From a virus (taxonomy: Duplodnaviria > Caudoviricetes), in IMG/VR virus record IMGVR_UViG_3300029288_007102, positions 96,001 to 160,000 of that record: a stretch of 64,000 nucleotides of DNA; one strand, given 5' to 3'. Below the pieces are notes generated by a model. It worked only from the letters and a program-made list of their open reading frames with translations, was not told where the DNA came from and did no database searches. The translations under genes were made by a program, and so were the position numbers. This document shows, one piece after another, positions 4,792-55,461 of this stretch (the first letter of the stretch is position 1; each line of letters starts with the position of its first letter).

Positions 4792-5463
4792 ATGTTAGAA
4801 AAAGAAATTAAAGAACAACACGAATCTTTTGGTTTAATTAGAATTGGCCGGGGAATGATCTCCGGCGGGGGTGGAACAAACTTATTTGGCAGCAGCATTG
4901 AGCATAGGAGTATTATTACCTTAGAAATCTCAACCGCAGAGATACAAAGAACTTTATCCCAAGATTGGGTTCATAGCAACAAGCAGTTGATAGAGGTAGA
5001 TATGTCTCCTACTCAATTTGCTGATATGGTTACTAGTTTAAATATGGGGGATGGAGTGCCTGTAACGATCCGGAAATTTAATGGCAAGACTATGGAAGAC
5101 TGCCCACATATAAGTAAGAGGAAACAGTTTTCCCAAGAGACAGAAGCACAGATGCAGGATATTGCCAAGATCGTAGATGGGGCTTTAGTCAAAGCTAAGG
5201 TGGTAGTGGAAAAGAAAACCCCGGCGACTAAAGGTGAATTGAAAGAGTTGTTAGATAGCTTGGTAAAATTAAAACAAGAGATAGATAGTAATTTGCCTTT
5301 CATTCATAATCAATTTAATCGCCAGATGGATAAGACCGTTGTAGAGGCAAAAGGGGAAGTTGAGGCGTTTGTTAATAATATAGTAGTGAAGCTGGGGATG
5401 GAAAAACTCCGGGAACAGGTTCCTTTGATAGAAGGACCTGAGAAGAATGAGAAGGCGGAGTAG
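4792..5463 (+). CDS. Conserved hypothetical phage protein
   Basis: Long ORF, SD GGGGG, first gene after the promoter; LFGSSI.H...I.L.I and EVDMS.TQFA motifs. Confidence 0.7.
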   Translation: MLEKEIKEQHESFGLIRIGRGMISGGGGTNLFGSSIEHRSIITLEISTAEIQRTLSQDWVHSNKQLIEVDMSPTQFADMVTSLNMGDGVPVTIRKFNGKTMEDCPHISKRKQFSQETEAQMQDIAKIVDGALVKAKVVVEKKTPATKGELKELLDSLVKLKQEIDSNLPFIHNQFNRQMDKTVVEAKGEVEAFVNNIVVKLGMEKLREQVPLIEGPEKNEKAE

Positions 5464-10415: not shown

Positions 10416-10496
10416 CTTGAAGTGGTGGAATTGGCAGACATAGGGACTCTAGTCCCGGGCGGAAACGCCGTGTTGGTTCAAACCCAACCTTCAAGA
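10416..10496 (+). tRNA. Class II (Leu-like) tRNA or pseudo-tRNA with shortened anticodon loop
   Basis: Acceptor CTTGAAG/CTTCAAG, D region GTGGAATTGGCAGAC, arm GGGAC-TCTA-GTCCC, long variable arm GGCG-GAAA-CGCC, T arm GTTGG-TTCAAAC-CCAAC; no CCA. Confidence 0.75.
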
Positions 10497-11848: not shown

Positions 11849-13192
11849 ATGAAAATCGAGATAAATGAGCAATTCAAGAAAGCTTTAGATCTAATGGAAA
11901 ATACAAATAAAAACATTTTTATTACGGGCGTGGCGGGTGTTGGTAAAAGTGTTCTTTTGTCTTATTTCCAGGCAATCACGAGCAAACGTTTGGCCGTCTT
12001 AGCCCCTACTGGGGTCGCCGCCCTCAACGTTAAAGGGGAGACGATCCACTCCTTCTTTTGTTTTAGACCTGGGATTACCAAAGAAAAAGTTTGGGAATTA
12101 AAGGTTAGTAATAAGAGAAGAATTTTATACCGTAACCTTCAAATGATAATTATTGATGAAGTTTCTATGGTACGGGCAGACTTGTTTGATTGTGTTGACG
12201 CATTTCTTAAAATTTATGGGCCAGCACCAGGGAAACCTTTTGGTGGGGTTCAAGCTGTTTTTATAGGAGATCTTCATCAGCTTCCCCCAGTAGTTACAGG
12301 CAAAGAAAATTTTATTTTTAAGAGATTCTATGATAGCCCTTATTTTTTCTCTGCCAAAAGTTTTAATAAGTTAAACGTAGAGCTTGTTGAGTTGACAAAA
12401 GTTTATAGGCAGAAAGACCCGGTTTTTATTGATCTATTAAACGCTATAAGGAACAATTGTCTTACGACAGATCAACTTATCTTGCTTAATACAAGAGTGG
12501 GAGCAGAGTTGCCAAGTGATAAGAGTGGTTATTCGGTTTATCTTACTACCACTAACAAAAAAGCTTCAAAGGTAAATGAAGAATCTTTGCGATCTATGGA
12601 GACAAAGATACACACTTTTAAGGCAAAGATTGCGGGGAACATAGATCGGTCTTTTTATCCTACTGACGAGGAACTTCAAATTGGTGCGGGTGCCCAGATA
12701 ATGCTACTAAATAATGATAGTCAAGATCGCTGGGTAAACGGTTCTATTGGAAGAGTTATTAAAATATATACTTTTGATGAGGATTGGACAGAAGCAAACA
12801 TAGATGTCCAATTAGACAATGGAAAGGTTGTTACTGTCGTTCCTCATTCTTGGGAAATTTTCTCTTATTTTTATAATAAAGAAAGGAATATTATTGATGC
12901 CGAAAGGATGGGGTCGTTTAGGCAGTTCCCTTTGAAACTGGCTTTTAGTTGTACTGTTCATAAGAGCCAAGGGAAAACATTCCCTTTGGTAAAATTAGAT
13001 TTAAGCCAAGGGATATTTGCACATGGACAGGCTTATGTGGCTCTAAGCCGTTGTGTGTCGCTAGAGGGATTGTCTTTAGAACAACCCTTTGATCAGAAGC
13101 ATATTTTAACTGATAGGGTTGTAGTTGAGTTTATGAAATGGTTGAGAGGGAAGGAAGAAGCAAATGTTCAGGAAATACGAAAAAACATTTAG
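11849..13192 (+). CDS. PIF1/RecD-like SF1B helicase
   Basis: GVAGVGKS Walker A, APTGVAA, IIDEVSM, GDLHQLPPV, TVHKSQG, YVALSR. Confidence 0.92.
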   Translation: MKIEINEQFKKALDLMENTNKNIFITGVAGVGKSVLLSYFQAITSKRLAVLAPTGVAALNVKGETIHSFFCFRPGITKEKVWELKVSNKRRILYRNLQMIIIDEVSMVRADLFDCVDAFLKIYGPAPGKPFGGVQAVFIGDLHQLPPVVTGKENFIFKRFYDSPYFFSAKSFNKLNVELVELTKVYRQKDPVFIDLLNAIRNNCLTTDQLILLNTRVGAELPSDKSGYSVYLTTTNKKASKVNEESLRSMETKIHTFKAKIAGNIDRSFYPTDEELQIGAGAQIMLLNNDSQDRWVNGSIGRVIKIYTFDEDWTEANIDVQLDNGKVVTVVPHSWEIFSYFYNKERNIIDAERMGSFRQFPLKLAFSCTVHKSQGKTFPLVKLDLSQGIFAHGQAYVALSRCVSLEGLSLEQPFDQKHILTDRVVVEFMKWLRGKEEANVQEIRKNI

Positions 13193-13826
13193 AATATTGG
13201 TTCCGCAGATAGATATTCACGGAAAATATTTTCTGTCTGATCAGGATACTAAGCGATTATTTGGCGGGAAGCTAATTATAACCGAGAAGTTGGATGGGGC
13301 CAATGTAGGTATTGTCCGGCATAAGGATACCTATCGGCTCCAAAAGCGGGGATCCCTGGTAGATCGTTCGGAACATGAGCAGTACAACTTCTTCCGGGAC
13401 TGGGCTTTTAGGAATGAAGATAAGCTGATGAGGCTGCCTAAGGGGACTGTCGCCTATGGGGAATTGATGCGGTGTATTCATACTATACATTATAATAGAC
13501 TGCCGGATTGGGTTTGCTTCTTTGACATCTGGTCCAATCAACATAATGAATATCTCCCTTGGGATGAAACTGTTGAGATATTTAAAGAGATCGGTCTTTA
13601 TACTGTTCCCTGGATAAACTCTTGTGAGGGCGTAAATAGGGGCAACATCTTCAACATGATCCCTAAAATCAGCCTATATGGGTCTGGAGATGCAGAAGGG
13701 GTAGTGGTTAAGAATTATCGCCAACAGCTCCGGGGCAAGGTTGTCCAGGAAAAGTTTGTGAAGGAAATGGAAGAGTCAGATCATTGGAGACAGCAACCTT
13801 TACGATTTAATTCTCTTCGGGGGTAA
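13164..13826 (+). CDS. ATP-dependent RNA ligase (Rnl2-like RNA_ligase family)
   Basis: TEKLDGAN motif I, YGE, FFDI, EGVVVK. Confidence 0.8.
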   Translation: MFRKYEKTFRILVPQIDIHGKYFLSDQDTKRLFGGKLIITEKLDGANVGIVRHKDTYRLQKRGSLVDRSEHEQYNFFRDWAFRNEDKLMRLPKGTVAYGELMRCIHTIHYNRLPDWVCFFDIWSNQHNEYLPWDETVEIFKEIGLYTVPWINSCEGVNRGNIFNMIPKISLYGSGDAEGVVVKNYRQQLRGKVVQEKFVKEMEESDHWRQQPLRFNSLRG

Positions 13827-15152
13827 AATTTGTGAGCCAGATATTGACAGGGCATATTGTTTTATCTGTAGTTGTTGGGATGTTTTTAGGTGTCTTGCCT
13901 ATTTTTAGGGAGAAATACGAGAAGGTATCGTGTAATCTTGGGATATTGACATCGTTAGTGCTAGCGTCGTGTGGGTATTGGATTGGGGCAGGGCTGTTTG
14001 TTATAGCTTTTTCTGTAATCAGAATGTCTATTGAAGGAGAAGAAATGAGTAATAACCCAGAGAAAGACAGGGAGAACATCATAAAGAACTGCTCCAAGTT
14101 GAAGTGGACAATGAAGACTGGGGAGAAGATTGTAGTTTCCAGCATGAAGGATAGCCATATTCAGAACTGCATTAGGATGTTAGAGAGGAATATTGTAACT
14201 AAATTGTTCACTGATATAGGAAATCCTTTTAACGAAGATACTGTAGCGTATGAAACTTTTCAATCAGCATCAGATGAAAACTTTGAGCGGTATGTTCTAC
14301 ACGCTACCCTTTGGATAGATATTTTTAATGCGGAATTAAAAAAGAGAGGATTGGAGGAAGTAAAATGAAAAAAAATAAATGGAAAAAGTCTGTACCTAAA
14401 GAAACAGGGTATTTTTGGTTTTGGGGATATTTATTTGACTCTTCTGCCATAAAAGAACTGGCAATAATTAAAGTCAGAAAAATCTCTAATGGTTATATAT
14501 ATATTTATGGAAGTCATGGAGTTAACCCTAAGGAGTTGACCGGGGTCTTTCTGAGAATAGAAGAGCCTAAAATTAACGCTAGAGGGGGAGTAGAATGACA
14601 ACTAAAACCTCTATTTATTGTAGTTCTTGCGGTGCCTTTATCGGGAACGCTGAAGATTTTTCTCATATGGTTATCCCGGCAGAAGGAATAAAGTGTCCTG
14701 ATTGTGGTACTGTTGTTATTGCTAGCAACGATCCTATATTTTAGGAGATGAAATAAAGGGGGAATAATGCCTAATTATATTGTTGTTACAGAGGAAACTG
14801 ATTGGACGTTGGCAAATAAAGTAAATGCTAAGATCAAAGAAGGGTATAAGCCAGTAGGTTCTGTTAATCATACCGTAAAGAATGATACTTTTCTTGGGAC
14901 TACTATGAACACTAAGGAATCCTGGTCCCAAGCAATGATGAAGGAGTAAACAAATGGGTAAGGTTTTGAGGAAAAAGGCAAAAAGAGATAAGAGAAAAGA
15001 TAGAGATTATGAAATTGTTAGTAAAGAAACTGGACTAACAGTTATAGAATTAAAAATGTTGCTTTTAAAAGGGGCAACTAGTGAAGAGATAATGATGGCT
15101 GCTTGTATTAAAAAGAATAGGTTAGGGACTATTAAAACATAAAGGAGAGAAA

Positions 15153-16941: not shown

Positions 16942-17571
16942 ATGAAAAAACGTACTTATTTGATCCAGAGATTGTGTTTCCCGGTAAAGCGTCCAGATGG
17001 AAAGTTAAATAAGTTAATGGAAGTCCTCTCCTTTGGTGGGGGTTTTATTCACGGAGGGCTTACAGAGGATGCTATGGGATTGCTCAGACCTATTTTTAAT
17101 TTTGATTATATGGGCTCAGCAGAGTTTGAATGGGGTGCTGTGCCTAAATCTCTTAACGAAATTGCTCATAACAACGAACAATATGTGCGGGGAGAAATCT
17201 TAATAAAAAGTAAAAATACCCCGATTTACTATATTTGCCGAAAGGAAGATGAGACTGATGTTCAAGATCTTATCCAACAGTTAGCGGCAGATCAATATAG
17301 GAATTTGAAAGAAAGATCTATGGTAAAGGAAGTTGTAGATGGAGACTCTTACGCTAAAGACCGTATAGGAGGTTGGTTGGAGATAGATAACCATTTCTTT
17401 TTCTTTACAGACAAGATAATGTTTGAGAAAGTGGCAGAGTTATTCCAAATCAAGGAAACAGACAAGATAATGTTTGAGAAAGTGGCAGAGTTATTCCAAA
17501 TCAAGGAAACAGACAAGATAATGTTTGAGAAAGTGGCAGAGTTATTCCAAATCAAGGAAGAGGTAAAATGA
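16942..17571 (+). CDS. Hypothetical phage protein with triplicated C-terminus
   Basis: FDYMGSAEFEWG motif; TDKIMFEKVAELFQIKE x3. Confidence 0.7.
   Translation: MKKRTYLIQRLCFPVKRPDGKLNKLMEVLSFGGGFIHGGLTEDAMGLLRPIFNFDYMGSAEFEWGAVPKSLNEIAHNNEQYVRGEILIKSKNTPIYYICRKEDETDVQDLIQQLAADQYRNLKERSMVKEVVDGDSYAKDRIGGWLEIDNHFFFFTDKIMFEKVAELFQIKETDKIMFEKVAELFQIKETDKIMFEKVAELFQIKEEVK
17407..17559 (+). repeat. Perfect 51-bp tandem repeat x3
   Basis: ACAGACAAGATAATGTTTGAGAAAGTGGCAGAGTTATTCCAAATCAAGGAA starting at 17407, 17458 and 17509. Confidence 0.95.
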
Positions 17572-18578
17572 AGGATAAAATATTAAAAGAAGTAGGGAAT
17601 ATAATTTCCCCGGTTTATCTGGTAGGGGGTTGTGTAAGAGATCATCTCTTAGGGTTGACCCCTAAGGATTGGGATCTCACTACGCCGCTTTTGCCGGAAG
17701 AGATAGAACACCGGATCCGGGAGGCGGGGCGTAGGCCATATCTTACTGGCAAGCGTTTTGGCACCATAGGGGTTAAAATAGATGGCCAACTGGTAGAGAT
17801 TACCACTTTCCGGTCTGAAACTTATATAAGTGGCTCCAGGAAGCCTCAGGTTCAATTTGTACAAGCTTTGGAGTCTGACCTAAGCCGCCGGGACTTTACT
17901 ATTAATTCTATGGCTATCGGCCAGGATGGCACTATTTATGACCCATTTAATGGAAAAAGGGATCTTGAATATAATATTCTCCGTTGTGTGGGGAAGGCGA
18001 ATGAGCGGCTTAAAGAAGACCCTTTAAGGCTCCTCAGGGCTGCCAGATTTATTTCTCAGTTGGGTTTTGTTATGGATGAAGATGATGAAGATATGTGTCT
18101 ACAGTTAAATTATAAAATCTTGGAAGTCAGTAAAGAAAGATGGGTAATGGAATTAGATAAGCTTCTGATGGGGGAATATGTAGATGAGGGGTTAAATTTT
18201 TTGGCTAGAACGGAGATTCTGCGATATATTCTACCTGAGTTATGGTTGCAGATAGGATATGACCAGAGAAATGAGCATCACACTCGGACTCTTTGGGACC
18301 ACACTGTAAAGGCAGTAGAATCCTGTGACAAGAGTATAGAACTTCGTTGGGCGGCTCTTTTGCATGATATTGCAAAGCCGATAATGGCAAAAGAGAAAAA
18401 AAATAGCCTTGGCCAGTGGAATTATCACAAGCACGATTTAGTTGGGGCGGAAATGGCCTTAAAGCTTGCTTATTATTTGAGGTGGTCTAATGACCGCCGG
18501 GAGACTGTTGTTTCCTTGATCAAGAACCATATGGATGAGGAAAGTCCATTGAAAAAGGCAGATAGGCTGGCAAAGTAA
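17568..18578 (+). CDS. cca: tRNA nucleotidyltransferase (CCA-adding/poly(A) polymerase family) with HD domain
   Basis: VGGCVRD, DWDLTT, EITTFR, DLSRRDFTINSMA, EDPLRLLRAARF, LLHDIAK. Confidence 0.92.
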   Translation: MKDKILKEVGNIISPVYLVGGCVRDHLLGLTPKDWDLTTPLLPEEIEHRIREAGRRPYLTGKRFGTIGVKIDGQLVEITTFRSETYISGSRKPQVQFVQALESDLSRRDFTINSMAIGQDGTIYDPFNGKRDLEYNILRCVGKANERLKEDPLRLLRAARFISQLGFVMDEDDEDMCLQLNYKILEVSKERWVMELDKLLMGEYVDEGLNFLARTEILRYILPELWLQIGYDQRNEHHTRTLWDHTVKAVESCDKSIELRWAALLHDIAKPIMAKEKKNSLGQWNYHKHDLVGAEMALKLAYYLRWSNDRRETVVSLIKNHMDEESPLKKADRLAK

Positions 18579-18768
18579 AGTACTTGTTGTGCGGACAGTG
18601 AGCCGATAAGGAATCATACGGTCTGCAGGCCGTGAGAATGGTGCGAGTCTACCAAGACTGCAAGTCAAACCTTGCCAACAGGTACTTTGAAAATAGGCGG
18701 ATGTATTATCATTGTTCATAACCAGGAATGTTTATGAGCAGGCTTTACGGCCTAGCATCCGCCTATTT
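18577..18768 (+). ncRNA. Two adjacent candidate structured RNAs
   Basis: Closing stems AAAGTACTTGTTG/CAACAGGTACTTT (18577-18688) and AAATAGGCGGATGT/GCATCCGCCTATTT (18691-18768) with internal hairpins. Confidence 0.55.
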
Positions 18769-19337
18769 ACTAATTAAGTATTAGGAGGTATGGTGAACAG
18801 AAAAATAAGAATATATTATTGGAAGTGTGAAGACTGCGGGCTAACTTTTCAACGGATTGCAAAAGGGGAACCTCGTGTTTGCCCGCAATGTAGGGGAAAA
18901 GGGGTAAAAACATTTAAAGGGGAAGAGGTTGTAATAGAGCCTATAAGAAAAAAATGTAAGCAGAAGGCTAATAAATTTTCTTAAACAGGAGGTAAAAAAT
19001 GGCCACAAGCTTTAGGTTAAAAGTGGGTGCCGGATATTGTTCGTTAAAGTCATATGATGAACAGGAAAAATTGATAAAGAAAGCATTAAAGCCTGACCCA
19101 AAAGAGATATTTAAAATTGTAAGGAGGCTTCGCCCTGATTTGAAAGTATGTGATGAATGTGGGGAGAAGCTTAGCTCCTTCGCCAAATACATAAAAGAAG
19201 GTCATACAGGTGCTGGTGGTGGCGGAGGCTGTCGGCAGATCAAAGAAGCGATCCAGAAAGCTAAAGTCATTTATCTTTTACAGGAAGCTCTCAAGGAAAA
19301 TGTTAATATTAATCTAGAGTTTATCAGTTGTTGAACG

Positions 19338-19520
19338 GGCTCTGGTGATGCTCTGCTGGAAGCATTCGGAAGTGTTTGGGCAAGTATAGCGGTTTTTCGC
19401 ACCGATAAGTTGTGGATAAAAGATAGGCCCACAAGAACGATTATACCTCTGCATAGCTACTCGGTGGGACTGTGCCAAACTACTGAAGTCCCAAAGTCAG
19501 TATAAATCTGACCCAGAGTC
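19338..19520 (+). ncRNA. tRNA-like RNA with large pseudoknotted insertion (copy 1)
   Basis: Acceptor GGCTCTGG/CCAGAGTC, D-like GATGCT-CTGCTGGA-AGCATT, T-like GTCAG-TATAAAT-CTGAC; same architecture as 53881-54014. Confidence 0.65.
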
Positions 19521-19540: not shown

Positions 19541-20281
19541 ATGAAATTGAACATGAACAAAGAAATTAAATCACCTTTAGTTGTTGGCTATAAAGGAGAG
19601 ATCGGGTCCTTTATATTACAAGGCTTATTAAAGGTAATACCAAAAGCTTTGAATATATGGTGCTATGATGTGTATGAGGCAAGATCGGAAGTGTTAAACC
19701 GGATTAGAAAGGCTGATGTTATTTTTCTCTGTATACCTATGGAAGAGACAATTACTTGGTTTGAGAAAAATAAAGGTCTGTTAAGAGGGAAAGTTTTAAT
19801 AGAACAATGTTCTCTTAAAACAAAAATATGTTCACACATAAAGAAACAAGAAAAGGAATGGGGCTTTACTTTACTTTCTATGCATATCCTCTTCCGCCCT
19901 TCGGCTACCCCGAATATAGAGGATCGGCGTGTAGCTTTAATTGACGCTAAATCTTGGCCTAATAGTTATAGGGCGTGTATACTGGCAACGACAAATTCTT
20001 CCCCCATTTTATTTTTGACCTGTTTGGAGCATGATATTGTTATGGCTTATCAGCAGGCTTTAGTACATCGTGTGATATTAGTGTTAGATAGATTATCGAG
20101 TGATCTACCAGGGAAAACCTATATTAGTGGCAAGATCTGTGAATTAGCAAAAAGGATAAGATCCGGGGATCCCACTTTGTATTCCTTAATCCAAGAGAAC
20201 GAATCTCTTCCTTTTGCTTTATCAAGGTTTACTGATGAGTTTAGAAATTTTGACATTAAGAAAGAGATGGAGAAAAAGTGA
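19541..20281 (+). CDS. Prephenate dehydrogenase (TyrA)-like protein
   Basis: Rossmann VVGYKGEIG, ADVIFLCIP, EQCSLK, SMHILF, EHD.VMAYQQALVH. Confidence 0.7.
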   Translation: MKLNMNKEIKSPLVVGYKGEIGSFILQGLLKVIPKALNIWCYDVYEARSEVLNRIRKADVIFLCIPMEETITWFEKNKGLLRGKVLIEQCSLKTKICSHIKKQEKEWGFTLLSMHILFRPSATPNIEDRRVALIDAKSWPNSYRACILATTNSSPILFLTCLEHDIVMAYQQALVHRVILVLDRLSSDLPGKTYISGKICELAKRIRSGDPTLYSLIQENESLPFALSRFTDEFRNFDIKKEMEKK

Positions 20282-20730
20282 AAGGCTATTTTGAGATAGG
20301 GATTTGCAACGGGAAGAATACAATGAATGTAGGCACACTCTGGAGATCTGCTTACCAGTTAGGTGCTACGGGTATTTTCACTATAGGCAAAAGGCTACCG
20401 CTCCAGGCTAGTGATACTTATAAGACTTGCCGACAGATCCCTTTGAGGGAATATCTTACAATAGAGCAATTTTTGGAGAACAGGCCATTTGACTGTCAAC
20501 TGATTGGGGTAGAGATGGACGGCAAACCTATATCCGGGTTCACTCATCCAGCCCGGGCTTTATATGTTTTGGGGGCTGAGGATCAGGGGTTGCCACAGAG
20601 TTTGATAGAAAAATGTGATCATATAATAACTCTGGATGCTATACGCAGACCATCTTTTAATGTAGCGGTAGCCGGAAGTATAGTAATGTATCATCGGGTG
20701 TTTAATCTAAAAGGGGTAGGGAATGGATAA
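20278..20730 (+). CDS. SpoU/TrmH-family RNA 2'-O-methyltransferase
   Basis: NVGTLWRSA, LGAEDQGL, SFNVAVAGSIVMY SPOUT motifs. Confidence 0.9.
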   Translation: MKGYFEIGICNGKNTMNVGTLWRSAYQLGATGIFTIGKRLPLQASDTYKTCRQIPLREYLTIEQFLENRPFDCQLIGVEMDGKPISGFTHPARALYVLGAEDQGLPQSLIEKCDHIITLDAIRRPSFNVAVAGSIVMYHRVFNLKGVGNG

Positions 20731-23456: not shown

Positions 23457-24140
23457 ATGGATAATATGGCGATTGCGAAAAGAATGAAAGACTATGAGCG
23501 GGTAACAGAAATTATGTTGCCCCACCGCATTCCAGTAATCTTAAGAGTAGATGGCCGGGCTTTCCATACTATTACCCGTAAGAGATTTGGCAGAGCCTGG
23601 TCTCTGGAGTTTGTAGAGCAGATGGTCGAAATGGCTAAGGTTGTCCAGAAAGACATCCAAGGATGCGACTTCTGCTATTCTCAGTCTGATGAAGTTTCTT
23701 TTTTGCTTACTGACTATAAGACCATTAGGACTAATGCCTGGTTTGATTATGACCTGCGTAAACTTATATCTATCTCTTCTTCCTTGGCCGCATCCGTATT
23801 CTCCCGGATTTATGGAAAGCCTGTCTGCTTTGACAGCCGGGCGTTCACGGTGCCTCACGATGATGTTTGCAACTACTTTGTGTGGAGGCAGATAGATGCC
23901 ACCAGGAATGCGATTCAGATGGCTGGTCGGGAGCATTTCTCCCATAAGCAGTTGCAAAACGTGAGCTGTAATGAGATCCAAGAGAAATTATTCCAGGAGA
24001 AGAAGATTAATTTCAACGACTACCCGATAGTCCGGAAAAGGGGATTTTGTATTGTTGATGGGAAGCCAGATTTTGCGATTCCTATCTTTAGTAAGGACCG
24101 GGCTTTTGTGGAGAAGTATGTCAATGTGAGGGAGGATTAG
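23457..24140 (+). CDS. thg1: tRNA(His) guanylyltransferase Thg1-like protein
   Basis: RMKDYE, RVDGRAFH, YSQSDEVS, FDSRAF, YFVWRQ.DA.RN. Confidence 0.92.
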   Translation: MDNMAIAKRMKDYERVTEIMLPHRIPVILRVDGRAFHTITRKRFGRAWSLEFVEQMVEMAKVVQKDIQGCDFCYSQSDEVSFLLTDYKTIRTNAWFDYDLRKLISISSSLAASVFSRIYGKPVCFDSRAFTVPHDDVCNYFVWRQIDATRNAIQMAGREHFSHKQLQNVSCNEIQEKLFQEKKINFNDYPIVRKRGFCIVDGKPDFAIPIFSKDRAFVEKYVNVRED

Positions 24141-44178: not shown

Positions 44179-46057
44179 GGTTGTTCTGCATAATTTTCAA
44201 TGCTTTCCTGATGAAACTTTCCAACTAGATAACCAAGGGTTATCTTTGATTTATGGTTTTGACGAAACGGGGGATGCTAATGGGGTTGGCAAGTCGGCAT
44301 TAGCGATTGACTCTATTACCTGGGTTATCTGGGGAGTAACCCCTAAAGGTATAGCCGGGGATGATGTTGTGATTGATCAAGGCTCTGGTAAAAATTGTTT
44401 TGTTGAACTTGATTTTGAGCCAGACCCGGAGACTAAGGTTAAAGTTATAAGGTATCGGAAGCATCATGAGTTTAGGAACGGCTTACGGCTTTTTGTTAAT
44501 GACCAGGAACAGACGCAGATGACCCCTACGGAGACGGAGGCTCGGCTCCAGAAGTATATTGGTGTTTCATATGAGGCGTTTATTAATTCTGTCCTATTTA
44601 GCCCGGAGATAACTAATCTTTTCTCTTCTTCTACTGATAAAGAGCGGAAGACTTTGATTGATTCGATCTTGGGTTATGAGTGGGCGGACCAGGCATTAGA
44701 GGTGGCTAGGAAGCGTTTGAAACAGGTTGATGGTGAGGCGGATGGTCTGGCACTTAAAAAGGCGGAGTTAAACAGTAAGTTGGAAGTTTTGTCCAGACAG
44801 AAGAAGGAGGCGGAAGAGGGGCAAGCTAATTTTGAGACAGAAAAGGAAGAAAAGATAAAAAAGTTTGAGGAGAATATCAAGAAACTTAAAGAGCAATTGA
44901 AGGATGTAGATGAGGCTCCGTTAAAGAAAAAATTGGAAGAAGCAAATACTGAGCTGGAGAGTATAGTAAAAACTGAGAAGTCGGCAGCTGAGACCCAGCA
45001 GGCGTTGCAGGGGTTGGAAGGAAGAATTATTGAGTTGGAGACGGCCAAGCAGTTGGCCGAGGAACAGATACAGCTGGCCAGGGAGAACATAAAACTTATT
45101 CAAAATAACGAGGGTGGGTCTTGTCCTCTGTGTGTTAGAAAAATTACCAAGACTGAAGCACCAAAAATGATACAGCATTATGGGGGGGAGGAAGATAAGC
45201 TTAAGGAAAAAGTAAGACTTATTGATGGCGATTTATATAAGTGTTGTAATTTGCGGGATGAGCTTATGGATGTCCTGGAAGAAGATCGGAAAAAGATTAA
45301 TAGACGTTTGGGTGTATTAAACGATAAGGATAGAGTGGTCGCTCAGATTCACGGGTTGGAAACGAAGACCTCTGAGATCAATTTGGCTATTTCTATGTCA
45401 GAGGCAATGACGAAAGACGCCTTAGCAGAAAAGTCTCCGTATAAGGATATGTTAGAGCGGGTAATAAAAGAAGAGGGTGAGGTTGAGAAAAAGATTGAAG
45501 AGGCTCAAGGAGAATTTGATACTCTTAATATTATGAGAAAACATTTAGAGTTCTGGGAGTATGGCTTCGGCCAGGCGGGGATAAAGACTTTTATCTTGGA
45601 TAGTGTTCTTCCTATACTAAATGATCGGGTCAAGTATTATTCTGAGATCTTGACGGATCAGGCTATTGAGGTTAAGTTCTCGGCTCAATCTCTCTTGAAG
45701 TCGGGGGAAGTACGGGAGAAAATAGATCTATCAATAGACAATACCCGGGGGGCCAGTAAGTACAAGGGAAATTCTACTGGGGAGAAGAGGAAGATAGATA
45801 TTTGTATTATGCTTGCCTTACATGATCTTATCAAGATGCGACATAGTGTGAATTTCAATGTGGCATTCTACGATGAGGTGTTTGCCTTCCTCTCGGCTTC
45901 TAGTATACAGAAGGTGATGACTTTACTTAGGGAAGAGGCTAGGACCAAAGATTCTGTGTTTGTGATTAGCCACGATGACAAGTTGAAATCTAGTTTTGAC
46001 CGGGTGATTATGATTAAGAAAGAAGGAAAGACATCTAAGGTTGTAAAGGATTCTTAA
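44162..46057 (+). CDS. SbcC/Rad50/gp46-like ATPase
   Basis: NGVGKS, coiled coil with CPLC hook, STGEK signature, YDE, ISH. Confidence 0.9.
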   Translation: MAKLNRVVLHNFQCFPDETFQLDNQGLSLIYGFDETGDANGVGKSALAIDSITWVIWGVTPKGIAGDDVVIDQGSGKNCFVELDFEPDPETKVKVIRYRKHHEFRNGLRLFVNDQEQTQMTPTETEARLQKYIGVSYEAFINSVLFSPEITNLFSSSTDKERKTLIDSILGYEWADQALEVARKRLKQVDGEADGLALKKAELNSKLEVLSRQKKEAEEGQANFETEKEEKIKKFEENIKKLKEQLKDVDEAPLKKKLEEANTELESIVKTEKSAAETQQALQGLEGRIIELETAKQLAEEQIQLARENIKLIQNNEGGSCPLCVRKITKTEAPKMIQHYGGEEDKLKEKVRLIDGDLYKCCNLRDELMDVLEEDRKKINRRLGVLNDKDRVVAQIHGLETKTSEINLAISMSEAMTKDALAEKSPYKDMLERVIKEEGEVEKKIEEAQGEFDTLNIMRKHLEFWEYGFGQAGIKTFILDSVLPILNDRVKYYSEILTDQAIEVKFSAQSLLKSGEVREKIDLSIDNTRGASKYKGNSTGEKRKIDICIMLALHDLIKMRHSVNFNVAFYDEVFAFLSASSIQKVMTLLREEARTKDSVFVISHDDKLKSSFDRVIMIKKEGKTSKVVKDS

Positions 46058-49799: not shown

Positions 49800-50139
49800 A
49801 GGCATCGGTGGTTCCTATTATATCGTGGAATCAGCCCTTCGGGGCTGAGCAAATTACCACCCGCCTTTTTTTTATAATGATGGGCACAAGGGGTTCCTAA
49901 CAAAAAAAAGACTAACACTCTTCCTAATACCCCTCGCTCTATAATATTTGGGCATAAGCGGTTCCTAACATAAAATCCCGTTAAGATTCTACTGCTCGCC
50001 CTACTAATTAAAAGGCATAAGCCGTTCCTAACAATTTCAATTGGTGAAAATATACGGCTCGCCTTCTATTAAAAGGCATATAGAGGTTCCTAACAAAAAT
50101 CAAGCCCTTCGGGGCACCTGCGATAATACCTCTCGCCTT
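49800..50139 (+). ncRNA. Array of five structured RNA repeats
   Basis: Units GGCA-(2-3 nt)-6-bp stem-TCCTAACA(variable loop)T-stem'-C-GCC at 49800, 49882, 49950, 50012 and 50073, with covarying stems. Confidence 0.85.
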
Positions 50140-52388: not shown

Positions 52389-53477
52389 ATGGCCAAAATA
52401 GATTTGGTTGAGATGCATAAGAGAAGAGATCTTCGTTTAGTTACCCGCAAGAAACACCCTACATTAGATTTATATATCTGGAACTATACACCTGAATGTC
52501 AATATAGCCGGGCTTGGGATGAGTACACCAAGATGGCTAGAGGATTGATTACTGATGGTGAAGGGAATATTGTTGCCAGACCTTTCAGTAAATTTTTCAA
52601 TTTAAATGAAGCAGAAGAAACGAAGATAGAAAACTTACCATTAGAGATCCCGGAGATAACGGAGAAGGTTGACGGGAGCCTTGCCATACAATATTATGAT
52701 GGTGGAGATAGGGTTTGTATTGCTACCCGGGGAAGTTTTGAGTCTGAACAGGCAATCTTTGCTACAGACTGGCTTTACCGAAAAGGGTATGTTAAAAATG
52801 CTTTTAAAGAAGAATATACTTATTTATGGGAAATAATATATCCACAGAATCGTATAGTTGTTTCTTATGGTGATTTTTCCGGCTTGATCTTACTTGCTGT
52901 TGTTGAAATTGAAACTGGCAAGGAGATAGATCATGTGCAAGAGGCACAAATATTAGGGGTGAGATCTTCGCAAAGAATAAATAAAACAGTTGATGAGTTA
53001 GTGAGTATTTGCAAAGACACTTCTATAAAAGGTACAGAGATGGAGGGCTTTGTTCTTAAATATAGTAATGGCCTGAGGGTTAAGACAAAGACGGAAGAGT
53101 ATATGAGACTTCATCGGATGATCACCCATTTTTCTTCTAAGGTTATTTGGGAGATCCTGGCTAAAGGGGAGACCATTGCGGTTTATTTGGAGCAGGTACC
53201 GGATGAATTTTTCCAATGGGCAAAGGAGAAGGAGAGAGAACTTAAAGATAATTATGCGGGAGTTTATGCTACTATTATATTAGGTTATAATGATGTAAAG
53301 GATCTTCCTACCCGGAAAGACCAAGCCTTAAGGATAATGAAGGATTATAAGGCGGTCTCTGGTGGAATATTCAGTTTGTTGGATGATAAGCAGAGTAACT
53401 TGAATGATTATATCTGGAAGATGATTAAGCCGGAATATGAGTTGCCGTTTAAGGATGTTAACCGGGAGGCAGAGTGA
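52389..53477 (+). CDS. T4 Rnl1-like RNA ligase
   Basis: ARGLI, RPFSKFFN, TEKVDGS motif I, ATRGSF, EIIYPQNRIVV, EGFV, K.K..Y. Confidence 0.88.
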   Translation: MAKIDLVEMHKRRDLRLVTRKKHPTLDLYIWNYTPECQYSRAWDEYTKMARGLITDGEGNIVARPFSKFFNLNEAEETKIENLPLEIPEITEKVDGSLAIQYYDGGDRVCIATRGSFESEQAIFATDWLYRKGYVKNAFKEEYTYLWEIIYPQNRIVVSYGDFSGLILLAVVEIETGKEIDHVQEAQILGVRSSQRINKTVDELVSICKDTSIKGTEMEGFVLKYSNGLRVKTKTEEYMRLHRMITHFSSKVIWEILAKGETIAVYLEQVPDEFFQWAKEKERELKDNYAGVYATIILGYNDVKDLPTRKDQALRIMKDYKAVSGGIFSLLDDKQSNLNDYIWKMIKPEYELPFKDVNREAE

Positions 53478-53880: not shown

Positions 53881-54014
53881 TGATAGGTGTGGTGGTCTGG
53901 CGAAACCATCGTTAACACTAGTGCGAGTTGAGAGCCTCGCCCGTAAACATTAAAATGTGTGTCTGCTACTAGCGGCTGAAGGACACAAAGTAGGTTCGAA
54001 TCCTATGCCTATCA
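53881..54014 (+). ncRNA. tRNA-like RNA with pseudoknotted insertion (copy 2)
   Basis: Acceptor GATAGGT/GCCTATC, D-like GGTGGT-CTGGCGAA-ACCATC, canonical T arm GTAGG-TTCGAAT-CCTAT. Confidence 0.7.
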
Positions 54015-54026
54015 AAAATATTATAA

Positions 54027-54097
54027 CTGGGTGAGGTGTTGCGGTAGCATTTGCGGCCTGGGACCGTAAGGGGAAAGTTCGACTCTTTCCATCCAGA
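54027..54097 (+). tRNA. tRNA-Pro(TGG), non-canonical
   Basis: CTGGGTG/CATCCAG-A acceptor, TGCGG-CCTGGGA-CCGTA anticodon arm, GAAAG-TTCGACT-CTTTC T arm; C1:G72 and A73; no CCA. Confidence 0.8.
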
Positions 54098-54441: not shown

Positions 54442-55461
54442 GTGATTGAAAGAGAAATGGCGGAAGCCAATAAAATATTAGTAATCAGAACCGGGTCGCA
54501 TATGTATGGGACTAATCTCCCGAATTCTGATGAGGATAAGATGGGGGTGTTTATAGCTGACGAAGATTACTATCTTGGGTTGAAGACGGTAGAAGAAGTG
54601 GATTTTTCTGTACAGGAGAAGGATGAAAGAGGAAAGAATACAAAGGATGCTCTGGATTATAAGCTTTACGAGTTTAAGAAGTATATAAAGCTTGCTTGTG
54701 ATTGTAATCCGAACATCATAGAAATGTTGTATGTCAATGAACCAAACATTCTTTTTATCAATGATTTTGGGAAGACGTTATTGGAGCATCGGGAATTGTT
54801 TCCTAACCAGAGAGCTTACTATAAGTTTATTGGGTATGCCCACTCTCAGAAGCATAAGATGATTATAAAGGGGGATCATTACAGCCAAATTATGGCAGCC
54901 CATGCCTATTTGAAGGAGCTGCCAAACCGGGCCATAATGAAAGACTTTGAGAAGAAAGAGCTTCCGTTTTTGGTCTACAACAAGAATGCTTTTATTGAAG
55001 TGGGGGATATGAGGATCCCTACAAATACCACTGCCAAGAAGGCGACGGCTTTGCTGAAGGGGAGAATTGACCGCTTTGGTAATAGGACTGAGCTGATTAG
55101 TAAGTACGGTTATGATCTCAAGTTTGGTTCGCATTTGGTTAGGTTATTGGTTGAGGGGATAGAGTTGTTGAAGACTGGGGAGTTGCAGTATCCTATAAAA
55201 GAAAGGCAGCTGATCCTGGATGTCCGGCAAGGCAGATATACTCTCAAACAGGTATTTGATATGTATGATGAGTTGAGTAAGGAGATAGACTCAGTGTTTG
55301 CCAATACTAAGCTGCCGCATCACCCGGATATAAATAAGATAAATGATTTTTTGAAAAATATTGTTAAAAAGAAATGTGGTTTCCCAGTTAAAAGTTTCAG
55401 TAAAAATTGTGTAAGATGGATAGAAGGGGTATTAAATTTGCTAAAAGGGGGAAGATTGTAA
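54442..55461 (+). CDS. Pol-beta-superfamily nucleotidyltransferase (Nuc-transf type)
   Basis: GSHMYGTN.PNSDEDKMGVF, NPNIIE, YD.K..SHLVRL. Confidence 0.8.
   Translation: MIEREMAEANKILVIRTGSHMYGTNLPNSDEDKMGVFIADEDYYLGLKTVEEVDFSVQEKDERGKNTKDALDYKLYEFKKYIKLACDCNPNIIEMLYVNEPNILFINDFGKTLLEHRELFPNQRAYYKFIGYAHSQKHKMIIKGDHYSQIMAAHAYLKELPNRAIMKDFEKKELPFLVYNKNAFIEVGDMRIPTNTTAKKATALLKGRIDRFGNRTELISKYGYDLKFGSHLVRLLVEGIELLKTGELQYPIKERQLILDVRQGRYTLKQVFDMYDELSKEIDSVFANTKLPHHPDINKINDFLKNIVKKKCGFPVKSFSKNCVRWIEGVLNLLKGGRL

Follow-up and report, generated by a model that had tools for sequence, protein, structure and literature searches.

Two small intergenic loci in a phage genome share a tRNA-shaped architecture, and we give an even chance to the reading that they are a pair of non-decoding tRNA-shaped RNA genes in which a stem-and-pseudoknot module with a variable domain takes the place of the anticodon arm. 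The stretch of DNA that was analysed (64,000 nucleotides, hereafter the window) comprises bases 96001-160000 of an IMG/VR virus record of 183,208 bp that is classed as a provirus and is 87% complete. Both copies are intergenic and lie on the coding strand. Copy 1 (19338-19520, plus strand, 183 nt) occupies the gap between the plus-strand ORFs 18999-19334 and 19541-20281, starting 3 nt after the preceding stop and ending 20 nt ahead of the following start codon; the Shine-Dalgarno sequence of the following gene begins ~8 nt past its acceptor 3' strand. Copy 2 (53881-54014, plus strand, 134 nt) is separated by 12 nt from the ordinary tRNA-Pro(UGG) gene downstream of it (54027-54097, plus strand), an arrangement as in a tRNA precursor. 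The two loci would be paralogous (or convergently shaped) small-RNA genes built on a tRNA frame.

Architecture of the two elements

An earlier note on this DNA had proposed that two loci differing in sequence share the order of their elements, and every element that it listed is present where it had been placed. From 5' to 3', the common order is an 8-bp acceptor, a 6-bp D stem, a 7-nt linker, a 6-mer, a variable domain, a stem referred to here as S, the dinucleotide AA and a T arm, followed by the 3' strand of the acceptor. In copy 1 (all features on the plus strand), the acceptor 5' strand (19338-19345) forms 8 bp with the 3' strand (19513-19520), G19338:C19520 would be a -1:73 pair, and CCA is not encoded. 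The D-like arm (19347-19366) has the 6-bp stem GATGCT/AGCATT and the 8-nt loop CTGCTGGA, which contains GG. The linker CGGAAGT (7 nt) joins the D stem to GTTTGG (19374-19379), the 5' strand of a long-range helix that starts 7 nt past the D stem and has CCAAAC (19475-19480) as its partner. The variable domain (19380-19464) is 85 nt long with its own predicted hairpins, and stem S (19465-19493; TGGGAC/GTCCCA) closes a 17-nt loop that holds CCAAAC and, at 19483-19487, CTGAA. After AA comes the T arm (19496-19512), GTCAG-TATAAAT-CTGAC, whose loop is of the T54/A58 type without U55 and C56.

Copy 2 is built in the same way, again on the plus strand. Its acceptor 5' strand (53881-53888) pairs with the 3' strand at 54007-54014, which ends just ahead of the tRNA-Pro gene, and flanking T and A runs could lengthen the helix to ~12 bp. 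The D-like arm (53891-53910) has the 6-bp stem GGTGGT/ACCATC and the 8-nt loop CTGGCGAA, and the 7-nt linker GTTAACA leads to CTAGTG (53918-53923), the 5' strand of the long-range helix, 7 nt past the D stem and with TACTAG (53967-53972) as its partner. The variable domain (53924-53957, 34 nt) contains the hairpins GCGAG/CTCGC and ACAT/ATGT, and stem S (53958-53987; TGTGTC/GACACA) encloses an 18-nt loop with TACTAG and CTGAA (53976-53980). The T arm (53990-54006), again after AA, is canonical (GTAGG-TTCGAAT-CCTAT), and copy 2 has a canonical GG...TTCGAAT elbow. The stem before the T arm is thus present as the earlier note had it, with a length of 6 bp instead of 5 bp and AA after it.

Two further sequences in the window touch on these features. 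A promoter-like TTGAGA-17-TAAAAT site (10 of 12 matches) lies at 53928-53956 inside the variable domain of copy 2; because comparable sites occur by chance about once per 5 kb on either strand, it is probably fortuitous, and we rejected it as an internal promoter. Elsewhere, at 10416-10496, the anticodon loop of an odd tRNA is collapsed (GGGAC-TCTA-GTCCC), and the anticodon stem of this tRNA is identical in sequence to the S stem of copy 1.

Base pairing and tests against chance

All 31 base pairs in the five helices are standard in both copies; 14 pairs differ between the copies on both sides, 5 differ on one side and 12 are identical. Within the long-range helix, 4 of the 6 pairs are changed on both sides, one is changed on one side and one is identical, so the earlier description of this helix as completely compensated was overstated. 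Unpaired motifs are kept where the stems differ, namely the CTG that opens the 8-nt D loop and the A that ends it, a TG after the S stem, the CTGAA with which the S loop ends and the AA before the T arm. The variable domains (85 versus 34 nt) are unalignable, and MAFFT failed to align the full copies.

The frequency of such frames was determined with two descriptors. A loose descriptor, which asks for the acceptor, the D stem and a T hairpin of whatever kind, matches often, ~40 times per genome. The full descriptor also requires T54/A58 and G53:C61 in the T loop, an insert of 20 nt or more and, directly against the T arm, a stem of 5 bp. It matches the real genome twice, both times on the plus strand and both times with the long-range helix, as compared to 0.1 matches per genome in 30 first-order Markov genomes (0 of 30 with the long-range helix) and a single chance match in 2.37 Mb of other viral DNA, which lies antisense within an ORF. 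The shared tRNA-shaped architecture of the two loci is therefore real and beyond chance, which bears out the earlier proposal of tRNA-shaped loci with one common architecture.

The long-range helix as a candidate pseudoknot

In the fold that we propose, the S loop may pair with the 6-mer located 7 nt past the D stem, and this pairing would create an H-type pseudoknot whose first loop is the variable domain of 34-85 nt. When the S stem was held fixed and the loop and 5' part were shuffled, a 6-bp match to the S loop appeared anywhere in 33-55% of shuffles and at the shared offset (5-9 nt past the D stem) in 4-5%. The fold energies are unremarkable (z = -1.9 for copy 1 and -1.3 for copy 2), the energy of the proposed fold plus the duplex lies ~2 kcal/mol above that of the nested minimum-energy fold, and thermodynamic prediction favours other D-region pairings. 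Of the conserved pseudoknot family that had been suggested earlier, the frame stands, whereas the helix remains a candidate at p ~0.05, a value set by there being only two members (n = 2), with no third member found and the nearest relatives lacking the elements.

Comparison with tRNA, intron-bearing tRNA and tmRNA

In both copies the acceptor, D and T arms follow cloverleaf order and satisfy a descriptor that calls for an acceptor of 7 bp, at least 4 bp in the D stem and, in the T arm, 5 bp closing a T54/A58 loop. A canonical anticodon arm (a 5-bp stem one base past the D stem, a 7-nt loop, U33 and a purine at 37) is absent from both. The stem that precedes the T arm has a 17-18-nt loop and stands 98 nt (copy 1) or 47 nt (copy 2) from the D stem; in line with the earlier view that the anticodon arm has been replaced, neither copy offers a 5-bp stem closing a 7-nt loop that could present an anticodon. 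With a putatively knotted insert in place of the anticodon arm, the RNAs are therefore probably unable to read codons. Neither copy matches the tRNA model RF00005 at E<=10 (threshold 29 bits; the adjoining tRNA-Pro scores 39.9 bits), and neither is called by default ARAGORN.

These findings bear on an explanation that we consider quite unlikely, in which the loci are real tRNA genes with an unusual short intron or insert that an endonuclease and a phage RNA ligase remove to leave a decoding tRNA. When introns are allowed, ARAGORN reports copy 2 as a tRNA-Ser(GCU) whose intron would be 48 nt long, with CGTTA/TAGCG as the stem and C-U-GCU-A-C as the loop; the phage encodes ligases of the Rnl1 and PF09414 types, and huge phages have been reported to have oversized, insert-bearing tRNA genes. 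However, the copy 2 call is unspecific, since 47 distinct deletion variants pass as tRNA, the anticodon being ACT, GCT or TGC, and the spliced 'tRNA-Ser' has a 15-nt variable region without a serine-type stem. For copy 1, none of the single-deletion variants tried (a start x length grid, 55-134 nt) was called a tRNA. Contiguous excision from either S loop never leaves a 7-nt loop with U33, the relatives L127 and L132 lack the whole of copy 2 and copy 1, respectively, and not merely an intron, and the model accounts for none of the features common to both copies. Thus, the excision of an intron to leave a normal tRNA, which the earlier note had raised as an alternative, fails for copy 1, while copy 2 is callable only in an unspecific manner.

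The elements resemble tmRNA, in which a tRNA-like acceptor and T arm are joined to pseudoknots. Nevertheless, the earlier exclusion of tmRNA holds: there is no ARAGORN or Rfam call and no tag frame, the 3:70 pair is U:A in both copies and not G3:U70, the D stem is kept, and the elements measure 134-183 nt as compared to ~390 nt for the tmRNAs of sister phages. No tmRNA was called in G000, while the sister phages G003 and G005 have one each. These two genes (14460-14851 in G003, contig L094; 87080-87472 in G005, contig L117) specify 27-28-residue tags ending in ATI and sit inside clusters of ~30 tRNA genes. A 121-nt tRNA-like sequence is also located inside a tRNA cluster of G005 (86771-86891, minus strand).

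Relatives and strain variation

Rfam release 15 contains no match to either copy, at the gathering threshold or at E<=10, consistent with the earlier statement that the family was not one that could be recognised. Similarly, blastn against 50,697 phage records returned no match and no close relative among cultured phages. Scanning IMG/VR for CTGAA-N5,6-AAAGTNNGTNNNAATC gave 70 matches, all of which we take to be chance because none has a 5-bp T stem. A covariance search had been recommended by the earlier note; run with a model of the 3' module (R1) on 0.93 Mb of relatives, it recovered the two copies and no third member, the next best hit having E = 0.1.

The closest relatives are metagenome contigs with 80-89% protein identity, which were reached via the flanking proteins, and no orthologous element is found at their syntenic sites. 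The 85%-identical contig L127 carries the ligase gene, a 70-aa ORF, tRNA-Pro and the RlaP gene, with 94 nt as compared to 750 nt in the window; tRNA-Pro is kept at this site and copy 2 is absent. On contig L132, copy 1 is absent and a 111-aa ORF is directly followed by an isochorismatase gene, a junction which indicates that copy 1, the prephenate dehydrogenase-like (PDH-like) gene, the SpoU gene and a 79-aa ORF together make up an accessory cassette of 1.8 kb, the left edge of which is occupied by copy 1. A third odd RNA (18577-18688) is missing from contig L130. It is part of a segment (18577-18807) in which a cloverleaf-like RNA abuts the stop codon of the CCA-adding enzyme gene and is followed by a long inverted repeat; the two make up a 226-nt stretch that the 89%-identical L130 lacks. 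Both elements are accessory, strain-specific insertions, and they are dispensable, as the closest relatives do without them. More distant relatives were fetched whole (G001-G006, with 43-62% identity in the PDH-like protein; the RNA ligase of G001 has 49%), and ARAGORN, the descriptor and covariance model R1 found no second example of the architecture in them. Orthologues for a covariation test are absent from what could be searched.

The 99.9%-identical strain L129 differs from the window at 2 of 2356 bases, both of which are in RNA stems and keep pairing via G:U. C53948T converts a C:G to a U:G pair in the ACAU/AUGU hairpin of the copy 2 variable domain, and T54039C converts a U:G to a C:G pair in the D stem of tRNA-Pro. 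With one data point each, these differences fit structural constraint.

The distribution among relatives also fits an explanation in which the loci are tRNA pseudogenes in decay, or scars left by recombination, in accessory regions prone to indels; they would be functionless, and alike because they descend from one duplicated ancestor. Both elements and the 18577-18688 RNA are absent from the syntenic sites of relatives with 80-89% identity, the T loop of copy 1 is degenerate, and neither the covariance model on relatives nor the IMG/VR motif detected conservation outside this phage. Decay should, however, break helices at random, whereas the five helices stay fully paired even though 19 of 31 pairs differ, the unpaired motifs are retained, and the sole polymorphism seen in copy 2 preserves a pair. 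On balance we hold decay to be unlikely. Descent from a particular tRNA of the clade was considered separately and rejected, the best identity being ~55%.

A second tRNA-frame family in sister phages

Sister phages contain a second family of elements on a tRNA frame, with members at 5041-5224 of G003 (L094 5041-5224), at 87407-87525 of G003 between gp32 and uvsX (L098 8607-8725), at 45829-46047 of G002 (L112 6429-6647) and at 7426-7586 of L141. Their common features are a GCTG acceptor, a D hairpin of 5 bp that closes an ATGAA loop, and a T arm of the form G-N-AGG TA[AT]AAAT CCT-N-C, and their stems covary around centres that are unalignable and range from ~50 to 160 nt. The element referred to as G003b has a stem and then AAA before the T arm. 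In the corresponding gp32-uvsX gap, G004 has a terminator-like hairpin. The family shows tRNA frames with exchangeable centres to be recurrent in this clade. A long-range helix at a shared offset is found in none of its elements, so the pseudoknot is not a general feature of such frames; the earlier note had expected homologues to retain it, and this related family does not.

Gene neighbourhood and possible function

Many genes for tRNA repair and maturation, including end repair and ligation, surround both copies. In the window they encode a PF09414 RNA ligase (13164-13826), a CCA-adding/HD enzyme (17568-18578), a SpoU methylase (20278-20730), a Thg1 homologue (23478-23855), an Rnl1-type RNA ligase (52389-53477) and RlaP (54442-55461), and such RNA-repair gene sets in jumbo phages have been described as answers to host RNases (PMC7824862). 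The next gene after copy 1 is the PDH-like gene (19541-20281, plus strand). Its product is a 'prephenate dehydrogenase-like' protein of the Rossmann type; it has more than 240 relatives, for the most part on contigs of large phages and frequently beside RtcB. In the closest PDH relative, the PDH-like gene is preceded by a 390-nt non-coding, strongly structured stretch (L081 5474-5861; z = -3.3), the first 97 nt of which fold as a four-way junction.

The positions of the elements also fit cis-acting, tRNA-like processing or stability signals ('t-elements'), at which RNase P and 3' nucleases would cut polycistronic transcripts and from which the excised RNA would be roleless. Copy 1 tightly fills its gap, copy 2 abuts tRNA-Pro, and the tRNA-frame element of G003 fills the gp32-uvsX gap that in G004 holds the terminator-like hairpin. 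Yet a processing signal would need only the acceptor and T arms, not a central module with CUGAA and the long-range helix, and the PDH-like genes of 11 other phages are without such a leader; we judge this explanation decidedly improbable. The same comparison with 11 phages led us to discard a conserved leader of the PDH-like gene, and sRNA-type target complementarity of the variable domains was also discarded, as only chance-level 12-mers were found.

Non-coding mimicry of tRNA is also displayed by YrlA and Yrn1 RNAs (Chen et al. 2014, PMC4201824), which have an acceptor-like helix in addition to D and T arms, serve as substrates for tRNA enzymes and occur in RNA-repair neighbourhoods, including those of phages (PMC4201824). 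If the two elements were RNAs of this kind, their partner would be a Ro60/TROVE protein of the phage whose gene lies 1.8 kb ahead of copy 2. YrlA RNAs occur within 4 kb of Ro60 on the same strand, phages included (PMC4201824), and some jumbo phages have TROVE proteins inside their RNA-repair gene sets (PMC7824862). The 646-aa protein encoded at this distance nonetheless has no Pfam match at E<=10 and no TROVE match in PDB sequences, and its structural neighbours in the Atlas are MXAN_6230/SCO0854 RING-domain proteins; no verified Ro60 gene is near. Moreover, the Ro60-binding motif GNCGAAN0-1G (as defined in PMC4201824) is absent from both elements and their flanks, and the arm order of D then T with open acceptor ends differs from that of YrlA. 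L127 keeps the region of the 646-aa gene without copy 2, and a different conserved hairpin array directly upstream of this gene in three phages is its likelier partner. A Y-RNA identity is thus very improbable. The array (49800-50139 in the window; 77880-78170 in G003, contig L097; 39710-39990 in G004, contig L107) has 4-5 units, each with GGCAUA, a 6-bp variable stem, UUCCUA... and CGCC, and its stems differ yet pair across phages.

Returning to non-decoding tRNA-shaped RNAs, the reading that we favour, the RNAs may be excised from longer transcripts by tRNA-processing enzymes, with RNase P acting at the 5' end, a 3' nuclease trimming the other end and the phage CCA-adding enzyme completing it; the phage's own enzyme is invoked because no CCA is encoded. 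The mature RNA would act through proteins that recognise the tRNA body and not the anticodon. Its most likely role may lie in the tRNA damage/repair conflict that is served by the two RNA ligases, RlaP, the CCA-adding/HD enzyme, Thg1 and SpoU. We infer both the processing by tRNA enzymes and the role in this conflict only from shape and neighbourhood. As a guess, the RNAs could be putative competitors or decoys for a host tRNA-targeting enzyme, or adaptors for a phage enzyme; the nuclease decoy and the substrate of the CCA or ligase enzymes that the earlier note had suggested are putative roles with support from the gene neighbourhood.

A broader proposal, which we put forward tentatively and think possible rather than probable, is that the tRNA frame serves large phages of this clade as a natural scaffold. 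The acceptor, D and T arms would secure processing, CCA addition and stability, a pseudoknot-locked module in place of the anticodon arm would carry an interchangeable cargo domain, and the RNAs would engage tRNA-binding enzymes, as decoys or as adaptors, where host defences that target tRNAs clash with phage RNA repair. The two copies would then represent one architectural type, defined by the S stem, CUGAA and the long-range helix, and the elements with the ATGAA loop would represent another.

Relation to known phage RNAs

Knowledge of anticodon-less phage tRNA look-alikes goes back to the T4 species 1 and 2 RNAs (rnaC, 139 nt, and rnaD, 119 nt), which, like the elements described here, are small phage RNA genes located beside tRNA genes and are annotated only as small, stable RNAs without a stated function. 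In rnaC, a canonical T arm (CCGGG-TTCGAAT-CCCGG) lies close to the 3' end and a closing helix joins the two ends; the centre is large and structured, and an anticodon arm is missing. However, the predicted fold of rnaC has no 6-bp D stem, no S stem with AA, no CUGAA and no equivalent long-range helix; inspection reveals no common sequence motif, so homology cannot be claimed, and as regards membership of the species 1/2 type the comparison covered the position beside a tRNA gene (copy 2) and the T arm.

A second parallel is provided by the Lak megaphages, whose oversized tRNA genes contain 'enigmatic introns' with an unknown splicing mechanism (Devoto et al., bioRxiv 10.1101/356790). In both cases tRNA-shaped genes of large phages are far longer than a tRNA, with inserts that are present or absent between related genomes, and the Lak phages likewise carry a T4-type RNA ligase and CCA addition (bioRxiv 10.1101/356790). 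The Lak genes differ in that a tRNA scan in eukaryote mode recovers their isotype and anticodon and that intron-less alleles exist (bioRxiv 10.1101/356790), whereas copy 1 yields no tRNA after any deletion tried and the relatives of this phage lack the whole elements.

On our best reading, the pair joins this poorly understood class of phage tRNA look-alikes as a variant of the T4 species 1/2 and Lak kind. The oversized tRNA genes of huge phages continue to be classified as tRNAs whose introns are unexplained. The full pairing of the two elements despite change at most stem positions, together with their tRNA repair neighbours, strengthens the argument that RNAs of this kind constitute a functional class and are not broken tRNAs, and the pair offers a concrete fold for experimental testing.
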